Source: Actinocrinis sp.
GTDB lineage: Bacteria > Actinomycetota > Actinomycetes > Streptomycetales > Catenulisporaceae
Length of the DNA: 64,000 nt
NCBI GenBank assembly: GCA_036501535.1
Contig: DASYAE010000209.1
Location: 1-64,000, forward strand
Reading direction: 5' to 3'
Both the position numbers and the translations under genes were made by a program. Under the pieces are notes generated by a model. The model worked only from the letters and a program-made list of their open reading frames with translations. It was not told the DNA's origin and ran no database searches. Positions within the stretch are counted from its first letter, which is position 1. Every line of letters starts with the position of its first letter. Of the stretch, positions 2,334 to 42,990 are shown piece after piece.

Positions 2334-3914
2334 ATGGCGCTGATCATCGTGGCCGGAGACAAAGGGTCTCCGGGCGTCACCACCGCGGCGGTGGCCCTCG
2401 CCGCGGCGTGGCCGCGCCACGCGATCCTCGCCGAGTGCGACCCGCACGGCGGCGACCTGGTCTACCGTCTCGCCGCGGAGCAGGGCGGCCCGCTGGATCC
2501 GAACACCGGCCTGCTGTCCGTCGCCATCGCCGCCCGGCGCGGCTTCGACGCGCGCGCCATCCCGCAGCACCTGCAGCGCGTGCACGGCGGCCTCGACGTC
2601 CTGGTCGGCCTCGGCACCGCGGAGCAGGCCGCCGCGGTCACCGGGCAGTGGTCCCGGCTGGCCCGCGCCTTCGACCAGTTCGCCGCGCTGCCCGAGGGCG
2701 GCGACGTGATCGCGGACTGCGGCCGGGTCGGCCCCTCGTCCCCGGCGCTGGAGCTGATGCCGCACGCCGCGCTGGTACTGCTGATCGCGCGCGCCGACGC
2801 CGAACAGGTGGCGCACGTGCGGGACCGCGCCAACGGCCTTTCCCAGGCGCTGCACGGCAACCAGGGCGCGACCGCCTCGATCGCCCGGCCGCCGATCGGC
2901 GTCGTGCTCATCGCGAAGCACCGCGAGGCGAAGAAGGTCGCGCACCAGGTCGGCGACCTGCTGTCGGCGACGGCTGGGGGAGCCGAGGTGCTCGGCGTGC
3001 TCGCGGAGGATCCGGAGGGCGCCGCAGCGCTCTGCGGCAGGGTGCACGCGCGGGTGGACAAGTCGCTGCTGATGCGCTCCGCCCGCGATCTGGCGAATTC
3101 GGTGACGGCGCGATACGCGCTGCTCCGGCAGCAGCCGCCGGCTGCGGCTGCGCACACTGCGCCTCCGCGCAGCTCTGCTCCCGGGGCCGGTCCGGCGGCG
3201 TCGGCCGCGGCCGCACAGTCTTATCAGTACCCTTCGGCGCATGCGGCGGCATCGTCTGGCGCGCCGCCGCCTTCCGCGGCCGAGACCACGGCGCCGATGC
3301 CGCCTATCCGTGACGCCTATGCCCCGCCGGTCGCACCGATATATAGCGCGCCGCAGCCGTGGTCGGCCGACCAGCAGTCGTATCAGTACTCACAGCGGCC
3401 GCAGTACGGACAGCAGTCGGCGCAGCCGCAGCATCAGTCGCGATACCCCCAGTACCCGCAGAGCGCGGCGAATTATTACCAGGACCAGGCTCAGCCTCAG
3501 GGGCAGTCCCAGGCGCAGAATCATGCGGCGCATCAGCCGCCGACCGCTGCGCAGACCCCGGCTACCGTCACGCTGACGCCCAAGCTGCAGCCGCAGCAGC
3601 CCCAGCAGCCTCACCAGCCCCAGTCCCAGCCGGAGCCGGCAGACGGGTGGCCGATCCGAGACGCCGTACCCACCACCGCCTCGGCCGCGGCCTCACCTGC
3701 CTCCCCACCTGCCCCCCAGCCCCAGCTGAACCTCGAGCCCGAGCCTGCGCCCGCAGCACACACACCCGAGCCCGCGATCTCCGCCGAAGACCCCGCCGAG
3801 CCCTCCGCGGCGCCCGCGGCCCCCGACCGATCCTCGACCCCTGACTCCGACGTCGCGGACCTCGCCGACGCCGCGCCGGTCTCCACCGGGTCCGGCGGGA
3901 CGGTGCAGCCCTGA
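2334..3914 (+). CDS. tadZ: TadZ/CpaE-like ParA/MinD-fold pilus localisation protein with a long Gln/Tyr/Pro-rich disordered C-terminal tail
   Basis: N-terminus MALIIVAGDKGSPGVTTAAVALAAA is a degenerate deviant Walker A (KGSPGVTT lacks the second Lys), typical of TadZ. It sits between cpaB and tadA. The last ~250 aa are low complexity with QSYQY/QPQ repeats. The stop overlaps the tadA start by 1 nt. Confidence 0.7.
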   Translation: MALIIVAGDKGSPGVTTAAVALAAAWPRHAILAECDPHGGDLVYRLAAEQGGPLDPNTGLLSVAIAARRGFDARAIPQHLQRVHGGLDVLVGLGTAEQAAAVTGQWSRLARAFDQFAALPEGGDVIADCGRVGPSSPALELMPHAALVLLIARADAEQVAHVRDRANGLSQALHGNQGATASIARPPIGVVLIAKHREAKKVAHQVGDLLSATAGGAEVLGVLAEDPEGAAALCGRVHARVDKSLLMRSARDLANSVTARYALLRQQPPAAAAHTAPPRSSAPGAGPAASAAAAQSYQYPSAHAAASSGAPPPSAAETTAPMPPIRDAYAPPVAPIYSAPQPWSADQQSYQYSQRPQYGQQSAQPQHQSRYPQYPQSAANYYQDQAQPQGQSQAQNHAAHQPPTAAQTPATVTLTPKLQPQQPQQPHQPQSQPEPADGWPIRDAVPTTASAAASPASPPAPQPQLNLEPEPAPAAHTPEPAISAEDPAEPSAAPAAPDRSSTPDSDVADLADAAPVSTGSGGTVQP

Positions 3915-5212
3915 TGGACCACGCTCTCGTCAAGCAACTGCGGCAGGAGGTCGGCGACCGGATCGCCGAACAGCGCCGGATCGACCAACTCTCCGGCATG
4001 CTGCCGATGAACCCGGAGGACGAGCGGCAGTTCGGCCGCGCCGTCATCGGCCAGGTGCTCGAGGAGCACGCGCGCAGCGAGGTCACCGCCGGCCGCATGC
4101 CGCCGAACGCGGCCGAGGAGGAGGCGCTCGCCGCCGGGGTGCACGCCGCGCTGTTCGGGGTCGGCCGGCTCCAGCCGCTGCTGGACGACCCCAACATCGA
4201 GAACATCGACGTCAACGGCTGCGACCGGGTCTTCATCTCGTACGCCGACGGGCGCGAGGTGATGAGCGAGCCGGTGGCCGAGTCGGACGCCGAGCTGATC
4301 GAGCTGGTCCAGATCCTCGGCGCCTACTCGGGCCTGTCCTCCCGCCCGTTCGACTCGGCCAACCCGCAGCTCGACCTGCGCCTGCCGGACGGCTCGCGGC
4401 TCTCCGCGGTGATGGACGTGACCCGCCGCCCGGCCATCTCGATCCGGCGCGCCCGACTCGGCAAGGTGTTCGTCAGCGACCTGGTCGGCAACGGCACGCT
4501 GGTGCCCGAGGTGGCCTCCTGCCTGTCCGCGATGGTCGGCGCGCGCAAGAACGTGATGCTCGCCGGGTCCACCAACGCCGGCAAGACGACGCTGCTGCGC
4601 GCGCTGGCCAACGAGATCCAGCCGAACGAGCGCCTGGTCACCGTGGAGCGGGCGCTGGAGCTCGGCCTGGACCAGTTCCCCGAGCTGCACCCGAACTCGG
4701 TCGCGCTCGAGGAGCGGTTGCCCAACTCCGAGGGCGTCGGCGCGATCAGCATGGCCGAGCTGGTGCGCCGCTCGCTGCGGATGAACCCGTCCCGGGTGAT
4801 CGTCGGCGAGGTGCTCGGCGACGAGATCGTCACCATGCTCAACGCGATGTCGCAGGGCAACGACGGCTCGCTGTCCACGATCCACGCGAACTCCTCGCTC
4901 GAGGTGTTCAACCGGATCTCCACCTACGCGCTGCAGGCGAACGAACGGCTCCCGGTCGAGGCCTCGCACATGCTCATCGCCGGCGCGATCGACTTCGTGG
5001 TCTTCATCGAGAAGCGCAACGATTACAGCCGCGGCGGCACCCTGCGCCGCTTCGTCTCCTCCGTGCGCGAGGTCAACGGCGTCGACGGCCGGGTGCTGTC
5101 CTCCGAGGTGTTCGCGCCGGGGCTGGACGGCCGGGCGGTGGCCCACTCGCCGATCGCCTGCCTCGACGAGCTCGTCGCGCACGGCTATGTACCCAGCGGA
5201 TTGTGGCGGTGA
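3914..5212 (+). CDS. tadA: TadA/CpaF type II/IV secretion ATPase for the Flp pilus
   Basis: Walker A GSTNAGKTT, plus the conserved secretion-ATPase segments RVIVGEV and NDGSLSTIHANS. 432 aa. Confidence 0.9.
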   Translation: MDHALVKQLRQEVGDRIAEQRRIDQLSGMLPMNPEDERQFGRAVIGQVLEEHARSEVTAGRMPPNAAEEEALAAGVHAALFGVGRLQPLLDDPNIENIDVNGCDRVFISYADGREVMSEPVAESDAELIELVQILGAYSGLSSRPFDSANPQLDLRLPDGSRLSAVMDVTRRPAISIRRARLGKVFVSDLVGNGTLVPEVASCLSAMVGARKNVMLAGSTNAGKTTLLRALANEIQPNERLVTVERALELGLDQFPELHPNSVALEERLPNSEGVGAISMAELVRRSLRMNPSRVIVGEVLGDEIVTMLNAMSQGNDGSLSTIHANSSLEVFNRISTYALQANERLPVEASHMLIAGAIDFVVFIEKRNDYSRGGTLRRFVSSVREVNGVDGRVLSSEVFAPGLDGRAVAHSPIACLDELVAHGYVPSGLWR

Positions 5213-14151: not shown

Positions 14152-15453
14152 GTGGTCACATTTCGTGATCGAAACCATCGAGGGAGTCTGATGTCAGTAT
14201 ACGATCAAGAAGTCAGCAATGATCGATCCCTGTTAAACAATATCGATCGTACGTTGACTGTCTCTCGCGACGGCAACGAACACTACTCTTCACCGCCGCC
14301 AGAAAATGACCACGAACAGCACGCTCGTGACGAGCCTGTTGATGGCAATGAAGAAGAGCATGAGTCATCTGACGAGGATATCCATAGCCATTCACGTGAC
14401 AGAAAAACGAGCGGGCGCGGCCACGATGGACCGGACTACCCGAGCGCTCTCTGGGGTCGAGTCCCGCCCGAGTCCCGTGCGTTCAAAGCCGCGGCGCGCA
14501 CCGGATATCGACCTGGCGACGATTGGCGCGATCTGCCCCGAGATCCACGGATCGGTCCCCATCCACGCCCAACCCGCCCGCGCGAAGATCATCCACTCGC
14601 CCTGATGCGCGAGCGGGCGGGCCACTGGCTCGATGATCATCTGCCGGCCACGCTACAGGGGCGCTGGCGGCTTGATCGGCGCACCGGCATCATCCTCGCC
14701 ACCGCGCTGACAGCCGTAGCCGTGCTGTTCGGCGGCTGGGAGCTGTTCCGCGACCGCACCGAACAAGTCACCGGGACGCGACTGATCAGCACGGGACAGC
14801 ACGGCCGCCACGACGACGACACCAGCGGCAGCAGCAGCGGCAGTAGTAGCACGCATAGTCATCACAGCCACTTCGATGATGGCGAATCCGGCATGAATCA
14901 GGATGATCCAATGACTATGCCGAACGCCTCCGAAGATGCATCAGGCGGCGCCGATTCAGCCGACAGCGCTGACGGATCGGGGTCCGGCCACGCTCTCGGC
15001 GCCGGGCGGCCGCCGATCATCGTCGATGTCGAAGGCAAGGTCGCCAGACCCGGCGTGCAGCGCCTGCCGGCCGGATCCCGGGTCCAGGACGCGGTGCGCG
15101 CCGCCGGCGGAGCGCTGGCCGGGGCCGACCTGGCGCCGCTGAACCAGGCCCGCGTCCTGAACGACGGCGAGCAGGTCGTCGTCGGCGCCCCGCAGGATCC
15201 GGCCGCGGCCGCCTCGCCGACCGGACCCCACGCCAAGGCGCGTGGCAAGCAGCAGGTCTCCGAGCCCGTGCACTTGAACTCGGCCACCGTCGACCAGCTC
15301 GAACAGCTGCCCGGGGTCGGCCCGGCGATGGCGCAGCGCATCCTCGACTGGCGTACCGAGCACGGCGGCTTCGCGACCGTCGAGCAGCTACGCGAAGTGC
15401 GCGGGCTCGGCGGCCAGCGATTCGCCGCCCTGAGCCGGTGGATCCAGCTGTGA
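14152..15453 (+). CDS. comEA: competence protein ComEA (SLBB + helix-hairpin-helix DNA-binding)
   Basis: C-terminus LNSATVDQLEQLPGVGPAMAQRILDWRTEHGGFATVEQLREVRGLGGQRFAAL is a tandem HhH ComEA motif. An upstream SLBB-like segment (IIVDVEGKVARPGVQRLPAGSRVQDAVRAAGG) and one TM helix. The first ~90 codons lie in an unusually AT-rich patch, so the true start may be later (for example Met at ~14596). Confidence 0.8.
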   Translation: MVTFRDRNHRGSLMSVYDQEVSNDRSLLNNIDRTLTVSRDGNEHYSSPPPENDHEQHARDEPVDGNEEEHESSDEDIHSHSRDRKTSGRGHDGPDYPSALWGRVPPESRAFKAAARTGYRPGDDWRDLPRDPRIGPHPRPTRPREDHPLALMRERAGHWLDDHLPATLQGRWRLDRRTGIILATALTAVAVLFGGWELFRDRTEQVTGTRLISTGQHGRHDDDTSGSSSGSSSTHSHHSHFDDGESGMNQDDPMTMPNASEDASGGADSADSADGSGSGHALGAGRPPIIVDVEGKVARPGVQRLPAGSRVQDAVRAAGGALAGADLAPLNQARVLNDGEQVVVGAPQDPAAAASPTGPHAKARGKQQVSEPVHLNSATVDQLEQLPGVGPAMAQRILDWRTEHGGFATVEQLREVRGLGGQRFAALSRWIQL

Positions 15454-17216
15454 GACGCCGCCCGAAGCAGCCAGATCTCCGCCTTCTGCTGCCGGTCGCG
15501 GCGGCGTGGGCGGCGGCCGCCCTCGGCGTGGCCGAGCCGCCGCTGCTGACCGCCCTCGCCTCGCTGGCACTGGCCACAGCTGCGGCGATCCACCTGATCG
15601 CGTCTCAGCGCAGAGAACGCCACCGCAGATCGCCGCCCGGCGCCATTGCGCGGCTGCCGGGCCTGACTCCGACCCCGATCACACCCTCGGCAGGCCTTTG
15701 GCCCTCCTGGCCGCTGCGTCCTCAACCTGCCGGGCACCCTCGACCTGCCGGACAGCCTCGATTTGCCGGGATTAACCTCCAACCGGAACCGCGGCACTCA
15801 GGGGTCTGCATGATCCTGCTGATCTCCGCGGTCCTGGGCGTGTCCGCCGCCGTGCACGCCGCAGCGGTGTCCAGCGGCCCCGTGGCGAGCCTCGCCGCGC
15901 GCTCCACATACGTCGACAGCATGCTGACTGTGGCCGGCGACCCGCGGCGGATCGCTGCCGCGCCGGACAGGCACCGGCCGGCGCTCGCGGTGCTTCCCGT
16001 TCGCATCACCGAGATCGTCACCGGCGACGGGACCGCTTATCGCGTAGGCGTCTCGGCCACGGTCCTGGCCAGGCTCACGCCGAGTTCATCGCCGCCGCCC
16101 ACCGCGGCCACAGCGTCCTGGCTCGGGCTCCTGCCCTCCGAACACGTCGCGGTCCGCGGCAAGCTGGTCCCGCCGAAGCCCGGCACCCAGGACGGCGCGA
16201 CGATCCTCGCCGACCGGCCGCCCGTCCTCGTCAGCGGCCCGTCGACCATGCAGGCGACAGCCGGCGCGCTGCGCGCGGACCTGCGCGACGCGACCTCCGG
16301 CCTGCCCGCCGACCCGGCCGGAGTGCTGCCCGCCCTGGCCGTCGGCGACACCGGCCGCGAGCCGCCCGACGTCGCCGAGGCGTTCAAACGCACGGGGCTG
16401 ACATACCTCACCGTGGCCTCCGGCGAGAACCTGATGTTCCTCACCGGAGCCCTGTTGCCCGCCGCACGCCGGCTAGGAATGCGCGGCCGCGCCCTCACCG
16501 GCCTCGGATTCCTGATCATCCTCGGGTTCACCGTGCTGGCCCGGCCGGGTCCGCCGATGGTGCGCGCCACCGTCATGTCGCTCATCGGCAGCGCCGCCGC
16601 CCTCTTCGGCCGCCGGTGCCGGGCGCTGCCGGTGATGGCCGCCGCCGCGCTGGTCCTCCTGCTGTTCAACCCTTGGCTCGCTCGCGCCTACGGCTTCGCG
16701 CTGTCCGTCGCCGCCACCGCCGGGCTGCTCATCGCCGCCCCCGGCTGGTTCGCCCGGCTGCTCGACCGCGGCGTCCCGGGCTGGATGGCCGGTCCGGCCG
16801 CGGTCACCGCCGCCTGCGAGGTGTTCTGCGAGCCGCTGCTGGTCACCTTCACCGGCTCGCTGCCCTTGCTCGCCGTCCCGGCCAACATCCTCGCTGCGCC
16901 CGCCGCGCCGCCGGCCACCGTGCTCGGCGTCCTCGCGATGGCCGGGTATGCGCTCTGGCCCCCGCTCGGCCGCCTGTTCGCCTGGGTCGGCCAGTGGCCG
17001 GTGCGCTGGATCTGCCTGGTGGCACGCGTCAGTGCCGGTATACCCGGAGCCGCGATCGGCTGGCCTCGAGGGCCGGCCGGATGCCTGATCCTGCTCGGCG
17101 CATACGTGATCTTCGCGGTCCTTTGGAGCCGGTGGGCACAGCGGGCGCGATCGCGCCGACAGCTCGCACAGCGCCGAAAAGGCACGAATCGGTTACAGCG
17201 TAGTCAAGTGGTATAG
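15438..17216 (+). CDS. comEC: ComEC/Rec2 N-terminal part (DUF4131 + competence channel domain), terminated by an in-frame TAG
   Basis: 592 aa, polytopic membrane protein with the ComEC competence-domain pattern (...LTYLTVASGENLMFLTG...). It ends with TAG at 17214-17216 in the same frame as the downstream MBL ORF. Confidence 0.75.
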   Translation: MDPAVRRRPKQPDLRLLLPVAAAWAAAALGVAEPPLLTALASLALATAAAIHLIASQRRERHRRSPPGAIARLPGLTPTPITPSAGLWPSWPLRPQPAGHPRPAGQPRFAGINLQPEPRHSGVCMILLISAVLGVSAAVHAAAVSSGPVASLAARSTYVDSMLTVAGDPRRIAAAPDRHRPALAVLPVRITEIVTGDGTAYRVGVSATVLARLTPSSSPPPTAATASWLGLLPSEHVAVRGKLVPPKPGTQDGATILADRPPVLVSGPSTMQATAGALRADLRDATSGLPADPAGVLPALAVGDTGREPPDVAEAFKRTGLTYLTVASGENLMFLTGALLPAARRLGMRGRALTGLGFLIILGFTVLARPGPPMVRATVMSLIGSAAALFGRRCRALPVMAAAALVLLLFNPWLARAYGFALSVAATAGLLIAAPGWFARLLDRGVPGWMAGPAAVTAACEVFCEPLLVTFTGSLPLLAVPANILAAPAAPPATVLGVLAMAGYALWPPLGRLFAWVGQWPVRWICLVARVSAGIPGAAIGWPRGPAGCLILLGAYVIFAVLWSRWAQRARSRRQLAQRRKGTNRLQRSQVV

Positions 17217-17414
17217 ACATCTTCGATCTGCAGGGGGTACGAATATGAACCGGCAACCACGGAGCGAGAACCGGCGACGGAACGAGCACGCGGGCACGGA
17301 GATCGGAGGGGAATTTTCGAGTCCAGCCCCTCCTGGACCCTCCGCCCGCCCGCCCGCCCGCCCGCACGCGGCTCGCGCGGGCGGCCGCGGCGGATCCTGA
17401 TCGCGATCTGCGGT

Positions 17415-18644
17415 TTGCTCGCGGCCGGGGCCGCCGCCTGGACCTGCGCGTCTGGCAGCTGGTCCGTCGGACAGGCGGCCCCCGGACGCCCCCATCTCGG
17501 ACCCTGCCTGCTCGGGCGCTGCCTCTACGGACCCGGCTCCACATCCGCCGCCTGGCCGCCGTCCACCTGGTCTCTCGCCGTCTGCGATGTAGGTCAGGGT
17601 GACGCGCTGCTGCTCCACGTCGGTCCGGCGACCGCGGTGGCCGTGGACACCGGCCCGGATCCGGCCCGCGAGGACGCGTGTCTGCGCCGGTTCCAGATCA
17701 CCAAGCTGCCGCTGGTCGTCCTGACCCACTTCCACGCCGACCACATCGGCGGGCTGCCCGGGGCGCTGCGCGGCCGCAAGGTGGACGAGATCGAGACCAC
17801 GGACACCGATACGCCGCCCTACGGGGCCAAGGAGGTCCGAGCCGAGGCGGCCGCGGCGAGGATTCCGGTCCACCGCGTCGCACCCGGCGAGCGCCGCCGC
17901 TACGGCCCGATCAGCTGGCACGTGCTGTGGCCGGACGGCTCGGCGTTCCCGCCCGACTCAGGGCCCGACGACGCGATCATGGACCGCATGCCCGGGATGG
18001 GTCCCGGGCCGTCCGGCGACGCTGACGGCTCGGGACCCAACAACACCTCCATCGTCATGGCCGTGACCGTCGCCGAACCGCGCGGCGGCCTGCACATCCT
18101 GCTCACCGGCGACATCGAGTCCCCGGTCCAGCAGGCGCTGCTGGACGGCCCGGCGCGCGGCGAACTGCGCGCCGACGTCCTCAAGGTCCCGCACCACGGC
18201 AGCGCCAACCAGGCGCCCGGATTCATCGGCGCGGTCGACCCGGTCGTCACCGTGATCTCCGTCGGCCGCGGCAACCCCTACCACCAGCCCGCCTTCAAGG
18301 CGATGCGCCTGATGAGCTCCGACGGCGCCCGCCTCTACCGCACCGACCTGGACGGCGACGTGGCCATCGGCATGGCCGCCGGATCCGGTGCCAAGCCTGA
18401 TTACGGCAGCGCAGTCGAAAGCTCGGGCACCGCGATCACGGTGTCCGGACAGCACGGCGACGGTGCGGACCCGGCCGCCGTCGAGGCAGAGGCATCCGCC
18501 ACCGCCGGCAGCTCGTCCTCGTCCCACGGCTATGGCCGTAGCCGCAATCGAGGCCATCGTGCCCATGGCACCCACGGTCGTCGGGAGGACAGTGGAGGTG
18601 ACGAGGGCTACGGCGCCGGCAGCTACCCGCCCGCGCCCTCCTGA
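17415..18644 (+). CDS. comEC: ComEC C-terminal metallo-beta-lactamase-fold domain (same frame as the upstream part)
   Basis: Contains LAVCDVGQGDALLL and VVLTHFHADHIGGL (MBL HxHxDH motif) and ...LKVPHHGS. No stop separates it from 17217 in frame 0. The track start is TTG. Confidence 0.7.
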   Translation: MLAAGAAAWTCASGSWSVGQAAPGRPHLGPCLLGRCLYGPGSTSAAWPPSTWSLAVCDVGQGDALLLHVGPATAVAVDTGPDPAREDACLRRFQITKLPLVVLTHFHADHIGGLPGALRGRKVDEIETTDTDTPPYGAKEVRAEAAAARIPVHRVAPGERRRYGPISWHVLWPDGSAFPPDSGPDDAIMDRMPGMGPGPSGDADGSGPNNTSIVMAVTVAEPRGGLHILLTGDIESPVQQALLDGPARGELRADVLKVPHHGSANQAPGFIGAVDPVVTVISVGRGNPYHQPAFKAMRLMSSDGARLYRTDLDGDVAIGMAAGSGAKPDYGSAVESSGTAITVSGQHGDGADPAAVEAEASATAGSSSSSHGYGRSRNRGHRAHGTHGRREDSGGDEGYGAGSYPPAPS

Positions 18645-18747
18645 CCCCTGCCCCCGGCGCCCCGCGAACTGCGCTGCGTCTGGTCCGCCACCGCCACCAC
18701 CAGCGAACCCGGCCCCCTGTCGCCGACAGCCTTTAGGATCGTTGACC

Positions 18748-20940
18748 ATGCAACCTCCCGTAGCGAAGACCGTGCCGCACGAGCGGGTCCACCACGCCGA
18801 CGTGGTCGACGACCCCTACGCCTGGCTGGCCGACAAGCAGGACGAGGCGGTCCTCGAGTACCTCAGGGCGGAGAACGCCTACACCGAGGACCGCACCTCC
18901 GGCCAGGCAGCGCTGCGCGAGGAGATCTTCCAGGAGATCAAGCGCGCCACCCAGGAGACCGACCTGTCGGTCCCCTCCCGCAAGGGCGACTGGTGGTACT
19001 ACAGCCGCACCCAGGAGGGCCGCCAATACCCGGTGCACTGCCGGCTGCGCGCCGACGGCGACCTGCCGCCCGCGGTGCCCGAGGACGGCTCCGCGCTGCC
19101 CGGCGAGGCGGTGCTGCTCGACGGGAACGAGCTGGCCGAGGGGCACGGCTTCTTCGCGCTGGGCACCTTCGACGTCTCCCCGGACGGCGGCCTGCTGGCT
19201 TACTCGGTCGACTTCGCCGGCGACGAGCGCTTCACGCTCAAGATCAAGGATCTGCGCACCGGCGCGGAGCTGGCCGACGAGATCCCGAACACCGGCTACG
19301 GCTCGGCCTGGTCGCTGGACGGCTCGACGCTGTTCTACCTGACCGTGGACGAGGCCTGGCGGCCCTACCGGGTGCACCGGCATGCGGTCGGCACGCCGGT
19401 GGCCGAGGACGAGACCGTCTTCGAGGAGCCGGACGAGCGCTTCTGGGTCGGCATAGGGCTTACCCGCAGCGAGCGCTACCTGGTGGTCAGCGCCGACTCG
19501 AAGATCACCAGCGAGGTGCGGCTGCTCGACTCGGCCGACCCGCGCGGCGAGTTCGTCGTGGTCGCCCCGCGCGAGACCGGGGTCGAATACTCCGTCGACC
19601 ACTGGTTCGACGCCGATGCCGAGGCCGGTGCCGCGGCCGGCGACCTCCTGCTGGTGCTGCACAACCGCGGCGGCCGGGAGAACTTCGAGCTGGCCCTCGC
19701 CGACCCGCCCAAGCCGGGAGAGTGGACGCCGCTGATCGAGCACCGCGCGGACACCCGCCTGCTGGCAGCCGAGGCCTTCGCCGACCACGTCGTGGTCGAA
19801 TACCGTCGCAACGGGCTGACCGGCCTGGCCGTCCACCCGGTCCGGGACGGGCGGCCGGCCCCCGCGGGCACCCCGATCACGTTCGACGAGCCGCTCTACA
19901 CCGTCGACAGCGGCGACAACCCCGAGTTCCGCACCGGCCGGCTGCGGCTCGGATACACCTCGCTGGTCACCCCCTCCACCGTCTACGACTACGACCTGGC
20001 CACCGGCCGGCTCGACCTGCTCAAGCGGCAGCCGGTGCTCGGCGGCTTCGATCCGGAGCAGTACGAGCAGCGGCGCCTTTGGGCCGCCGCGGCCGACGGC
20101 ACCCGAGTGCCGATCTCGCTCGTGCACCGCAAGGGGGTCGCGGCCGACGGCACCGCGCCCGCCGTGCTCTACGGCTACGGCTCGTATGAGGCCTCGATGG
20201 ACCCCTACTTCTCGGTAGCCCGGCTCAGCCTGCTGGACCGCGGATTCGTCTTCGCCGTCGCGCACGTCCGCGGCGGCGGCGAGATGGGGCGCCGCTGGTA
20301 CGAGGACGGCAAGCTGCTGAACAAGCGCAACACCTTCACCGACTTCGCGGCCTGCGCCCGGCAGCTGGTGGCCGAGGGCTGGACCAGCGCCGAGCGGCTC
20401 ATCGCCCGCGGCGGCTCGGCCGGCGGGCTGCTGATGGGCGCGGCCGCCAACATCGCGCCGGAGTGCTTCCGCGGCATCCTGGCCGAGGTCCCGTTCGTCG
20501 ACGCGCTCAACACGATCCTCGACCCCTCGCTGCCGCTGACCGTGGTGGAGTGGGAGGAATGGGGCAACCCCCTCGAATCCGAGGACGTATATCGGTACAT
20601 GAAGTCCTACAGCCCCTACGAGAACATCGCGCCGCGCGGCGCCGATTCGGCGGCGATGCGCGGGGGAGCGGCGCCCGGCTACCCGGCGATCCTGGCGACC
20701 ACCAGCCTGAACGACACCCGGGTCCAGTACCACGAGCCGGCCAAGTGGATCGCCCGGCTGCGGGCCGTCGCGCCCGGCGGCGACTACCTGCTCAAGACCG
20801 AGATGGAGGCGGGCCACGGCGGCCGCTCGGGGCGGTACGACGCCTGGCGCGAGGAGGCCTTCAACCTGGCCTGGGCCATCACCGTCGTCGGCGGTCCGGA
20901 CCGGCTGCCCTCCGGCGGGGCCGCGCCGGGGCGGGACTGA
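18748..20940 (+). CDS. ptrB: oligopeptidase B / prolyl oligopeptidase family S9 serine peptidase
   Basis: N-terminal beta-propeller region and a C-terminal peptidase domain with GGSAGGLLMG (catalytic Ser) and a downstream catalytic His (EAGHGG). ATG at 18748; the track ORF 18388 is an upstream extension overlapping comEC. Confidence 0.85.
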   Translation: MQPPVAKTVPHERVHHADVVDDPYAWLADKQDEAVLEYLRAENAYTEDRTSGQAALREEIFQEIKRATQETDLSVPSRKGDWWYYSRTQEGRQYPVHCRLRADGDLPPAVPEDGSALPGEAVLLDGNELAEGHGFFALGTFDVSPDGGLLAYSVDFAGDERFTLKIKDLRTGAELADEIPNTGYGSAWSLDGSTLFYLTVDEAWRPYRVHRHAVGTPVAEDETVFEEPDERFWVGIGLTRSERYLVVSADSKITSEVRLLDSADPRGEFVVVAPRETGVEYSVDHWFDADAEAGAAAGDLLLVLHNRGGRENFELALADPPKPGEWTPLIEHRADTRLLAAEAFADHVVVEYRRNGLTGLAVHPVRDGRPAPAGTPITFDEPLYTVDSGDNPEFRTGRLRLGYTSLVTPSTVYDYDLATGRLDLLKRQPVLGGFDPEQYEQRRLWAAAADGTRVPISLVHRKGVAADGTAPAVLYGYGSYEASMDPYFSVARLSLLDRGFVFAVAHVRGGGEMGRRWYEDGKLLNKRNTFTDFAACARQLVAEGWTSAERLIARGGSAGGLLMGAAANIAPECFRGILAEVPFVDALNTILDPSLPLTVVEWEEWGNPLESEDVYRYMKSYSPYENIAPRGADSAAMRGGAAPGYPAILATTSLNDTRVQYHEPAKWIARLRAVAPGGDYLLKTEMEAGHGGRSGRYDAWREEAFNLAWAITVVGGPDRLPSGGAAPGRD

Positions 20941-40513: not shown

Positions 40514-41503
40514 GTGCCCCAGACCACGACCGACCCGCGGCCCGAGCCGGCCGCGCCGCCGGCGAAGCCCGGATACACCGAGACCGCGCTGCTGCACGAA
40601 CTCGAGCCGGTGGTCGAGCACAATCTGAACCGCCACCTGAGCAGCGCCCGGGAGTGGTTCCCGCACGAGTACGTCCCGTGGAGCGAGGGCGCCGACTTCG
40701 ACGGGCCGCTCGGCGGCCGGGCCTGGGAGGTGGAGCAGTCCCGGCTGGACGAGACCGCGCGCACCTCGATGATCCTGAACCTGCTGACCGAGGACAACCT
40801 GCCGAGCTACCACCACGAGATCTCCCGGCTGTTCGGCCGGGACGGCGCCTGGGGCACCTGGGTGCACCGCTGGACCGCCGAGGAGGGCCGGCACGGCATC
40901 GCGATCCGCGACTACCTGCTGACCACCCGCGCGGTGGACCCGGTCGCGCTGGAGCGGGCCCGGATGACACACATGTCCACCGGCTACGACTCGGTGCACG
41001 CGCACCACGCGGTCAACGCGATCGCCTACGTCTCGTTCCAGGAGCTGGCCACCCGGATCTCGCACCGCAACACCGGCGCCTACTCCGGCGAGCCGCTCTG
41101 CGACCAGCTGCTGGCCAAGATCGCCAACGACGAGAACCTGCACATGGTCTTCTATCGCAACCTGCTGAGCGCGTCCCTGGAGATCGCGCCGGACCAGACC
41201 ATGGCCGCGGTGCTCGACGTGGTCAAGCGGTTCGAGATGCCGGGCGCGACGGTGGAGAACTACACCCGCAAATCGGTGCAGATCGCCCTTGCCGGGATCT
41301 ACAATCTGCGCATCCACCGGGACGAGGTGCTGATGCCGGTGCTGCGCAGCGTCAAGGTCTTCGAGCGCACCGGGTTCGGCGCCGAGGGCGAGCGGGACCG
41401 CGAGGAGCTCGCCGCCGTGCTCGAGGCGCTGGACTCCGCGGCCGCCCGGTTCGAGGAGAAGCGCGCCGCGTACCTCGCCCGCAAGGCAGACCGAAACGCC
41501 TGA
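40514..41503 (+). CDS. desA: acyl-ACP (stearoyl-ACP-type) fatty acid desaturase
   Basis: Di-iron ligand motifs TAEEGRHG and ANDENLHM (E-E-x-R-H / D-E-x-x-H) and an overall soluble desaturase pattern. GTG at 40514 with AGGAG 6 nt upstream. The track ORF 39824 is an upstream extension. Confidence 0.82.
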   Translation: MPQTTTDPRPEPAAPPAKPGYTETALLHELEPVVEHNLNRHLSSAREWFPHEYVPWSEGADFDGPLGGRAWEVEQSRLDETARTSMILNLLTEDNLPSYHHEISRLFGRDGAWGTWVHRWTAEEGRHGIAIRDYLLTTRAVDPVALERARMTHMSTGYDSVHAHHAVNAIAYVSFQELATRISHRNTGAYSGEPLCDQLLAKIANDENLHMVFYRNLLSASLEIAPDQTMAAVLDVVKRFEMPGATVENYTRKSVQIALAGIYNLRIHRDEVLMPVLRSVKVFERTGFGAEGERDREELAAVLEALDSAAARFEEKRAAYLARKADRNA

Positions 41504-41661: not shown

Positions 41662-42990
41662 ATGTACGACACGGCCAAGCGAAGCCTGGCCTTCACGGTC
41701 GCGACAGGCGGGCTGCTGTTGGCGGGCGCCGGTTACACGCCGGTGCAGGCGGCTTCGGGCCAGGGCCCGGCGCCGGATCCGGCGCCAGGAGCAGGCTCGG
41801 CGGCGCAGAGCACCGTGCAGGGCTCCGGCGGACTGCTGAGCGGCAACACCCTGCAGATCCCGCTCAACCTCGGCCTCAACCTGTGCGGCAACCAGGTCGC
41901 CGCGGCGGCCGCTGAGGACACGGTGCACGGCACCAAGTGCGCCGAGACCGGCGGCGCCTCGGCCGTCTCCGGCACCGCCCATTCCGGCGGAGTCCTGTCC
42001 GGCAACACCCTGCAGGTCCCGGTCAGCATCCCGGTGAACCTCTGCGGCAACCAGGTGGTCGCCGCCGGCGAGGGGAACGTCGCGGCCGGCGCCAAGTGCG
42101 CCACCGGCGGCCGGGCCTCGTCCGGCGCGCACGCCGCCTCGGTCACCGACCGGTCCGGCGGCCTCGTCTCCGGCAACACGTTCCAGGCCCCGGTCTCCGT
42201 CCCGATCGAGCTGTGCGGCAACCAGGCCGTCGTCGCGGGCGTGGAGAACCTCGTCGCGGGCGCGCACTGCAGCGGCGGCTCCCGGCCCGGCCGCGAATCC
42301 GGCGGCGGCGCCACGGCCACCTCGGTGACCGTCCGCTCCGGCGGCGCCCTCTCCGGCAACACGGTCCAGACGCCTATCACCGTGCCGGTGGAGATCTGCG
42401 GCAACCAGGTCGCGGTCGCCAGCGTGCACGACGGGGTGTTCGGCACGGTCTGCGAGGCGCCGGCCGGGCCCGGCACCGCGGCGAAGAGCGTGACGATCGG
42501 CTCGGGCGGCCTCGTCTCCGGCAACACCTTCGCCGTGCCGATCGACGTGCCGGTCGACATCTGCAACCTGCAGGTGGCCGCGGTCACCAAGAAGCTGAAG
42601 GACAGCGACGGCGTGTGCGTCAGCGGACGGATGATTCCGCCTGCGCCGCTGCAGGGACCGCCTCCGCCTCCGCCGCCGTTCACCCCTCCCACCACCCCGC
42701 CGACGTCGCCCACCACGCCGCCTACATCGCCTACCACGCCGCCGACGTCGCCCACGACGCCGCCTGTGTCGCCGACCACCACGGTCCCCACGACTCCGGG
42801 CACGCCGCCCTCGCCGCCGGTGCATCCGAACGCGCCGCTGCCCCCCGCGCCGCACAGCAGTGCGCCGACGCCTCCGTGCACGCCGGTCCCCGCGACCACC
42901 GGCGGCGCGATGGCCGCCCTCGGGGCCGGCGGCGCCGCGCTCGCCAGCCTTAGCCCGCGTCGGCGGTCCCGCCGCAAGGCGAAGTCGTAG
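41662..42990 (+). CDS. multi-domain chaplin-like surface protein (5 chaplin domains, Pro/Thr linker, C-terminal cell-wall sorting signal)
   Basis: Signal peptide ...PVQA. Five ~40-aa repeats of G-[GL]-L-S-G-N-T-x-Q-x-P-x-x-x-P-x-[NE]-[LI]-C-G-N-Q-[VA]...G-x-x-C, the chaplin/DUF320 pattern with 2 Cys per domain. Then (TPPTSPT)n linker repeats. Then ...VPATTGG followed by a hydrophobic stretch and an RRRSRRKAKS tail. An AT-rich putative promoter precedes it (41520-41570). Confidence 0.75.
   Translation: MYDTAKRSLAFTVATGGLLLAGAGYTPVQAASGQGPAPDPAPGAGSAAQSTVQGSGGLLSGNTLQIPLNLGLNLCGNQVAAAAAEDTVHGTKCAETGGASAVSGTAHSGGVLSGNTLQVPVSIPVNLCGNQVVAAGEGNVAAGAKCATGGRASSGAHAASVTDRSGGLVSGNTFQAPVSVPIELCGNQAVVAGVENLVAGAHCSGGSRPGRESGGGATATSVTVRSGGALSGNTVQTPITVPVEICGNQVAVASVHDGVFGTVCEAPAGPGTAAKSVTIGSGGLVSGNTFAVPIDVPVDICNLQVAAVTKKLKDSDGVCVSGRMIPPAPLQGPPPPPPPFTPPTTPPTSPTTPPTSPTTPPTSPTTPPVSPTTTVPTTPGTPPSPPVHPNAPLPPAPHSSAPTPPCTPVPATTGGAMAALGAGGAALASLSPRRRSRRKAKS

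Follow-up and report, generated by a model that had tools for sequence, protein, structure and literature searches.

ComEC/Rec2, known from Bacillus subtilis and other bacteria (TIGR00361), is in its canonical form a single polypeptide in which DUF4131, Competence and Lactamase_B domains follow each other (DCL), the last being a nuclease domain of the metallo-β-lactamase (MBL) type. Passages of PMC8579336 place the action of the ComEC C-terminal domain at the outer face of the membrane. According to passages of the same paper and of PMC6299819, about half of the ComEC proteins surveyed are without the nuclease domain, and degradation of the non-transforming strand in those bacteria is posed there as a question. 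ComEC with or without the MBL domain is also the subject of passages of Pimentel & Zhang 2018, Silale et al. 2021, a 2025 Nucleic Acids Research (NAR) study and Meheust et al. 2019, and an adjacent stand-alone gene for the MBL domain is not mentioned in these passages. Here we analyzed the comEC locus in a stretch of 64,000 nucleotides from Actinocrinis sp. (assembly GCA_036501535.1, contig DASYAE010000209.1, positions 1 to 64,000 of the forward strand), which we call the window. We consider it likely that slippage has shifted the frame of the second of the two genes into which ComEC is naturally split at this locus, and that a single inherited event led there to loss of the nuclease. The split itself, the true start of the second gene, an 8-nt insertion in it and the recurrence of this insertion in several assemblies were observed directly.

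The cluster in the window consists of comEA, comEC-channel, comEC-MBL, S9-peptidase and holA genes, and it belongs to an uncultured Actinocrinis-like actinobacterium of the order Catenulisporales. An earlier note on this DNA had described a comEC reading frame cut by one in-frame TAG, with a tetranucleotide repeat in the linker between the two domains. What it reported of the letters was accurate. The channel open reading frame (ORF) ends at TAG 17214-17216, and frame 0 is open over 17217-18644, with the MBL domain there in the frame of the channel ORF. An ATG at 17245 lies in frame +1, preceded at a distance of 7 nt by AGGGGG and followed after 51 aa by the stop TGA 17398-17400. Pfam Competence was found in 15438..17216 and Lactamase_B in the downstream ORF. 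The (CGCC)5 at 17343-17362 is present as well, the full perfect tract being (CCGC)6 at 17342-17365. The features of the comEC locus are listed below.

15438..17216, forward strand: ComEC channel gene, complete, with N-terminal region and Competence domain (Pfam Competence 3e-42, residues 300-566).
17217..17244, forward strand: intergenic spacer of 28 nt, with a Shine-Dalgarno-like AGGGGG at 17232-17237, 7 nt before the ATG (read from the sequence).
17245..17400, forward strand: actual 5' end of the separate gene for the MBL part, the ComEC C-terminal domain (ORF translation; 51 aa, stop TGA 17398-17400).
17342..17365, forward strand: (CCGC)6 tetranucleotide tract of 24 nt (alignments, difference lists, TRF, simulation and unit series).
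17394..17450, forward strand: N-terminal membrane anchor ILIAICGLLAAGAAAWTCA of the MBL protein, coded in frame 0 and here cut off from ATG 17245.
17415..18644, forward strand: MBL domain ORF as publicly annotated, 409 aa with TTG start (Pfam Lactamase_B 1.6e-10; NCBI HEY3871524.1).

Together the two window genes correspond to the two halves of TIGR00361, as the channel gene product covers its positions 112-359 and the MBL part positions 561-663. The channel ORF carries the Competence domain PF03772 and its TIGR00360 score exceeds the cut-off. The N-terminus of the channel protein agrees with that of a 552-aa Actinocrinis orthologue, and an exact look-up of the window channel protein gave no record. 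In the MBL ORF the motifs DVGQGD, HFHADH and PHHGS are all present. Further, the intact MBL protein of a close relative (P0001) is homologous to the solved ComEC C-terminal domains 9vc6, 9ic4 and 30bt.

In Catenulisporales (Actinocrinis, Actinospica, Catenulispora) the division of ComEC into a channel gene and a separately started MBL gene is natural. The 120 best homologues listed for the MBL ORF are all 289-652 aa long and contain only Lactamase_B-family Pfam domains; those with names come from Actinocrinis, Actinospica and Catenulispora. A gene with the Competence domain stands directly 5' of the MBL gene in the compared loci L001, L081, L082, L164-L167, L168 and L170. The spacer between the two genes varies in sequence and in length: it measures 28 nt in L081, 41 nt in L082 and 2 nt in Actinocrinis L001. 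In Actinospica robiniae (L168) there is instead an 8-nt overlap of the two genes, and in Catenulispora sp. GP43 (L170) one of 4 nt. The context of the channel stop, GGTATAG, is kept in L001, L081-L083 and L164-L167. Since the orthologues are two genes with conserved independent starts, TAG 17214-17216 is the natural stop of the channel gene. A genuine split ComEC, one of the readings offered by the earlier note, is therefore what the relatives have, and the same note had set such orthologues beforehand as evidence against a nonsense mutation. Its headline, a single comEC frame interrupted by a TAG, fails, because no intact Catenulisporales relative has its channel and MBL genes in the same frame.

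We compared this arrangement with the fused form. In 78 of 79 loci from Streptomyces, Kitasatospora, Kribbella, Nocardioides and allied bacteria both domains lie in one frame with no stop between them. Alignment to the fused proteins places the fission point in a short cytoplasmic loop, with the last channel helix on one side and the helix before the MBL domain on the other. The two-gene layout was also seen in about 25 distant metagenome loci (within L115-L148), whose identity to the MBL domain is 25-39%. Two of them, L116 (1213-3388) and L122 (1278-3328), were inspected by eye; there the genes overlap and the MBL protein opens with a hydrophobic helix of its own. From these comparisons split ComEC seems to be widespread, although surveys score such genomes as being without the nuclease domain. 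The remaining locus of the 79 is L004 (Streptomyces sp. CC228A, ~3850-4001), a hybrid assembly, in which the Competence part and the MBL part do not share a frame: that of the channel ends at 3876, and that of the MBL part is open from 2921 on. This frame break may be a frameshift or an assembly error.

The true start of the MBL gene was identified from six relative proteins (P0001, P0002, P0003, P0123, P0125 and P0126). All of them start with (M/V)NRQPRSENRRRNEH at the equivalent of ATG 17245 and run into the MBL domain, and the intact proteins that read through from this codon are 463-492 aa long. P0001, with 463 aa, begins with MNRQPRSENRRRNEH and is 100% identical to the window 3' of the repeat; the other five are ~78-90% identical. 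In the intact MBL protein 47 mostly basic residues lead to ILIAICGLLAAGAAAWTCA, which is followed by the MBL domain. At residues 48-66 of P0001 the Kyte-Doolittle mean over 19 residues is 2.11, and the preceding segment has 11 K+R against 5 D+E. This anchor aligns with the transmembrane helix that stands before the MBL domain in fused Streptomyces ComEC. The ORF 17415..18644 represents the 3' 88% of the real MBL gene and lacks the part for the cytoplasmic tail and for half of the anchor; its 409-aa product is identical to P0121, which is NCBI HEY3871524.1. In the product of the TTG start the best hydrophobic window reaches 0.90, and the basic segment and 7 of the 19 anchor residues are missing; such a product is predicted to have no membrane segment. 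Across four lineages we found 359 amino-acid-invariant codons in the MBL gene, 122 of them with synonymous changes, and the gene is otherwise under purifying selection in the clade.

The public gene models around this start deserve a separate remark. The JGI gene calls have 335 aa even for the intact allele, and HEY3871524.1 treats the frameshifted gene as intact. We considered whether the 335-aa calls were further frameshifted copies and rejected this, as L164 holds an intact ORF of 463 aa; the short calls reflect the choice of the gene caller.

The lesion is located in the tetranucleotide tract. According to the alignments and difference lists, the intact allele reads CCGG(CCGC)3 where the window has (CCGC)6, which is a gain of 8 nt plus one G>C change. 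The tract was called by TRF at 17342-17369 with period 4, and no microsatellite in the 64 kb is longer. In 100 first-order Markov simulations a period-4 tract of at least 24 nt never arose (the mean for tracts of at least 16 nt was 0.05), and the 24-nt tract is beyond chance. It is situated at codon 33 of the MBL gene, where unit changes shift the frame. In an in-silico series of 2-10 units only 4, 7 and 10 units join ATG 17245 to the MBL domain, so that loss of two units or gain of one from the present six restores the frame. With 6 units, as in the window, translation stops after 51 aa. The earlier note had expected that loss of one unit would fuse this ATG to the MBL domain, and here its arithmetic was wrong, as 5 units lead to a stop after 117 aa.

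Over 6.9 kb the window is 99.6% identical to the intact locus L081, which encodes P0001 and from which it differs by 17 single-nucleotide polymorphisms (SNPs), one intergenic indel of 1 nt and the 8-nt indel in the repeat. From 17366 to 18644 it is identical to the intact allele, and no further lesion was found in the window copy. At this site the length of the intact allele is also found in relatives with 87-93% DNA identity. In L082 and L083, which are ~87% identical, the site is degenerate and not a repeat (CCGGCCGGCCGACCGG and CCGGCCGGCCGTACGG), and in L166 it reads CCGG(CCGC)2CCGG. Because these more distant loci have the short length and degenerate sequence, the 6-unit allele is the derived one. 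It is only because of the additional 8 nt that the channel and MBL parts share a frame in the window, L165 and L167, and this coincidence made the locus look like one ORF interrupted by a single stop. Long open off-frames are common at 72% GC. The profile of GC at third codon positions (GC3) gives a frame 0 signal up to ~17100 and again from ~17320, with a GC-poor (~57-60%), aperiodic part at 17140-17320. As expected for a frameshift pseudogene, the indel is not a multiple of 3 relative to the intact orthologues (L081, L164); further decay was not found. Since the window copy bears no further damage, the event would be recent, or else the remnant may still be used.

Alleles of the tract were compared in five closely related assemblies. 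The 6-unit allele was found in the window, in L167 (Logan, SRR11833492) and in L165 (JGI 3300036780), and the 4-unit allele in L081 (SRR11832711) and L164 (JGI 3300037258); no other tract length occurred. L167 shows 0 differences from the window in 4743 nt, while L165 shows 4 SNPs in 7008 nt, two of which are shared with the other haplotype. The length of the tract is linked to the SNP haplotype, with 4 units on haplotype A (L081, L164) and 6 units on haplotype B (window, L167, L165), the linked flanking SNPs being 17291 and ~15 others. Both 6-unit backgrounds (window/L167 and L165) have exactly 6 units. A comparison of repeat copy number and of the TAG across strains had been proposed in the earlier note: the TAG proved to be conserved, and the tract has 4 or 6 units depending on haplotype. 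In the metagenome contig collection a pattern scan across the repeat gave 0 matches, and a protein-guided scan gave none closer than 48% identity and no extra repeat alleles. The two L165 SNPs shared with the intact haplotype (L081, L164) are 16107 G>A and 19953 A>C, which hints at recombination between haplotypes or at a mixed-strain consensus.

We propose the following course of events. The channel protein would end at the conserved TAG 17214-17216 and the second protein would initiate at ATG 17245, its cytoplasmic N-terminus being positively charged and followed by one helix across the membrane and by the MBL nuclease domain outside the cell. After expansion of CCGG(CCGC)3 to (CCGC)6, 33 codons into the MBL gene, ribosomes coming from ATG 17245 would drop out of the MBL frame and terminate after 51 residues at TGA 17398-17400. 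The anchored nuclease would then not be made, or only in traces, while the channel gene stays intact. The functional nuclease subunit is probably absent from the window strain, because the ComEC C-terminal domain works outside the membrane and the anchor is lost. The strain may accordingly be regarded as a putative natural loss-of-function variant for the ComEC nuclease. We infer that the mutation was a single recent slippage event, stably inherited and not a fast switch; one inherited loss-of-function mutation is favoured over rapid phase variation because the allele is SNP-linked and only two lengths occur.

Several points weigh against this interpretation. The tract lengths were taken from assemblies, from which minor length variants within populations would escape, and the samples behind the three 6-unit assemblies may be related and belong to one study. 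That function is lost is deduced, and some protein could be produced from TTG 17415, from CTG 17397 or from ATT 17313 in frame 0. In the 6-unit allele rare readthrough of TAG 17214 would yield a fused ComEC. A perfect tract of 6 units is more prone to slippage than its 3-unit ancestor, which makes reversion possible. A role of the locus in natural transformation is putative; what speaks for orthology is the comEA and holA neighbourhood.

The tract could also be a contingency locus, that is, a reversible switch which keeps the ComEC nuclease ON with 4, 7 or 10 units and OFF with 5, 6, 8 or 9, so that populations are mixed and their cells differ in how they take up DNA. Several properties agree with this: no simple repeat in the 64 kb is longer than the perfect 24-nt tract, which is far above chance, the tract takes the classical position early in the coding region (codon 33), ON and OFF lengths exist in strains 99.6% identical, one additional unit would restore the frame, and the downstream gene has not decayed. 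We nevertheless regard this explanation as unlikely. The five assemblies gave two lengths only, each wholly bound to its SNPs (17291 and ~15 others) and not independent of the background, and two distinguishable 6-unit backgrounds kept exactly 6 units. The repeat is not kept in related species (degenerate in L082 and L083, CCGG(CCGC)2CCGG in L166), the six intact relative proteins all have the same length at the site, the in-frame form with 7 units was not seen, and no other such tract is present in the window. The phase-variable switch suggested by the earlier note is thus right in that the repeat is the site of the lesion, and the pattern of alleles argues against a dedicated switch. It seems to us quite improbable that in this soil actinobacterium (CCGC)n truly acts as a slipped-strand ON/OFF switch for a ComEC nuclease subunit encoded in trans. 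If it were one, gene fission would have let the nuclease toggle without touching the DNA channel, and cells with and without strand degradation would be mixed.

Another explanation takes the public annotation (PGAP model HEY3871524.1) at its word: the 409-aa MBL protein, made from TTG 17415 or by reinitiation after the 51-aa ORF, would serve ComEC. The ORF is intact with all its catalytic motifs (DVGQGD, HFHADH, PHHGS), and the short ORF ends with its TGA 15 nt ahead of the TTG, in an overlap with a CTG (CTGA). We find this unlikely. There is no Shine-Dalgarno sequence ahead of TTG 17415, and as the charged N-region is missing together with 7 of the 19 anchor residues (hydrophobic window 0.90 against 2.11), export to the outer face, the site of action of the ComEC C-terminal domain (PMC8579336), is unlikely. 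Moreover, the long N-terminus is kept by all those relatives whose products run from the true start.

The real genome could also have the intact 4-unit allele, the insertion being an assembly or sequencing artefact. The source is indeed a metagenome-assembled genome (MAG; P0121 is named 'MAG TPA ... Actinocrinis sp.' at NCBI) and short GC-rich repeats are hard to sequence. On the other side, the same 8-nt insertion is found in the NCBI third-party-annotated MAG and in JGI and Logan assemblies, with L165 on a background 4 SNPs apart, and the sole other indel relative to the intact haplotype in 6.9 kb is intergenic, so these assemblies are not prone to indels. Because the same allele occurs in assemblies from three sources on two backgrounds, assembly error as its origin is very unlikely, and the sequencing error considered in the earlier note is unlikely in the same way. 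A nonsense pseudogene, in which a point mutation creating TAG 17214-17216 would have cut a single-polypeptide comEC, accounts for the two parts lying in one frame with this sole stop between them and can hardly be upheld, as the TAG and its context are kept in all relatives including Actinocrinis at 64% identity, intact relatives of the order have the parts in different frames, their MBL genes have their own start codons that partly overlap the upstream stop, and the frame-0 'linker' 17217-17341 is an out-of-frame reading of a conserved N-terminal peptide.

We also looked for signals in the RNA and DNA around the frameshift. A programmed ribosomal frameshift was considered and rejected, since all relatives are in frame and local folding is ordinary. 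No X XXY YYZ heptamer was seen by eye between 17342 and 17398. Folding of 17275-17372, of its L081 and L082 counterparts and of 17200-17345 gave z values from -0.55 to +0.63 against dinucleotide shuffles, and a structured RNA or frameshift-stimulating hairpin is not supported by these predicted folding energies. Neither promoter-like nor terminator-like sites were found in 16900-17600. In 17000-17600 no Rfam family was matched, and the sub-threshold hits were miRNA-like hairpin noise.

The first 33 codons of the MBL gene show unusual conservation of nucleotides. Positions 17246-17333 form a perfect three-way identity of 88 nt with relatives that are ~87% identical overall, and 17190-17220 and 17388-17436 are conserved as well. 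Among amino-acid-invariant codons, 30 of 31 in this segment are unchanged, compared with 186 of 300 in the rest of the gene (Fisher p = 1.6e-5). GC is low here (~57-60%) and shows no GC3 bias; the segment has no Rfam match, and its folding energy is ordinary. These data point to constraint at the nucleotide level on 17246-17333. The conserved segment 17182-17440 has no second copy elsewhere in the window.

The neighbouring genes of the cluster are as follows.

14152..15453, forward strand: comEA, a DNA receptor with SLBB and helix-hairpin-helix domains (Pfam HHH_3 3e-18, SLBB 4e-10).
18748..20940, forward strand: prolyl oligopeptidase (S9) gene (Pfam Peptidase_S9_N 9e-99), a conserved neighbour in the gene tables of L082 and L164.
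From ~20946: holA (DNA polymerase III delta), a conserved neighbour of the locus in the same gene tables.

The coordinates of comEA are those of the longest ORF, and gene callers chose later starts in relatives. According to the gene tables, comEA also stands 5' of the channel gene in L081, L082, L164, L168 and L170. At the start of the S9 gene, 18733-18837 is a perfect three-way identity of 105 nt with the ~87%-identical L082 and L083, the longest in the compared region.

Two features were noted elsewhere in the window. Long chaplins of Streptomyces have two chaplin domains. The 442-aa ORF at 41662-42990 (forward strand) has five (Pfam ChpA-C 4.6e-65, 5 stretches), and it underlies the tandem repeats of 159 nt and 183 nt at 41824-42474. 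On the reverse strand, 40883-40950 is a full-length match to Rfam ASdes (RF01781) with 83.3 bits, the gathering score being 40. This family was described in Mycobacterium tuberculosis, and the match here lies in an Actinocrinis-like genome.

For annotation these results mean that the public 409-aa TTG model masks a frameshift, and that the 'in-frame stop' in this gene is not a signal of a pseudogene. Across an actinobacterial order and in the ~25 distant metagenome loci, the 'missing' ComEC domain is the next gene, with an anchor of its own. Part of the question on nuclease-less ComEC may thus be an effect of annotation. As far as sequences can tell, the ComEC nuclease clearly can work in trans, or at least be selected for there. 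The sister strains offer a natural experiment, being environmental strains with and without an intact nuclease gene and with identical channels. The frameshift is an ordinary slippage mutation and mechanistically unsurprising. The OFF allele puts the channel and MBL parts into one frame, and readthrough or a point mutation of TAG 17214 would recreate a single-polypeptide ComEC.

Compared with known systems, the locus resembles ComEC/Rec2 in its Competence channel, in an MBL domain homologous to solved structures, in the catalytic HxHxDH and DVGQGD motifs, in comEA upstream and holA downstream, and in the MBL domain being predicted outside, behind a transmembrane helix. Unlike the canonical one-polypeptide DCL form, the window lineage, Actinocrinis, Actinospica and Catenulispora use two separately started genes, an S9 peptidase gene is placed between comEC and holA, and in the window strain the MBL gene is frameshifted. 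The window channel protein alone would be scored as without Lactamase_B, as are the C-terminal-domain-less C and DC profiles of Pimentel & Zhang 2018 (PMC6299819), and it carries no Lactamase_B just like the ComEC without MBL fusion of the Candidate Phyla Radiation (CPR; PMC6744442); the difference from these architectures is that in the window the domain is encoded by the next gene.

Simple-sequence contingency loci with phase variation by tetranucleotide repeats are known from Haemophilus and Neisseria. The window tract shares with such loci a perfect tetranucleotide repeat early in a gene and ON/OFF length alleles in near-identical strains. It differs from them in having only 6 units, in being SNP-linked and in not being a repeat in ~87%-identical relatives, and the compared assemblies gave no sign of length ladders within populations. 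As in ordinary slippage frameshift pseudogenes, a short repeat in the MBL gene is expanded by a length not divisible by three, translation ends prematurely, and the sister strains have the orthologue intact. Unlike such pseudogenes, the MBL gene shows no secondary decay yet, and the shift restores a common frame with the upstream channel gene.

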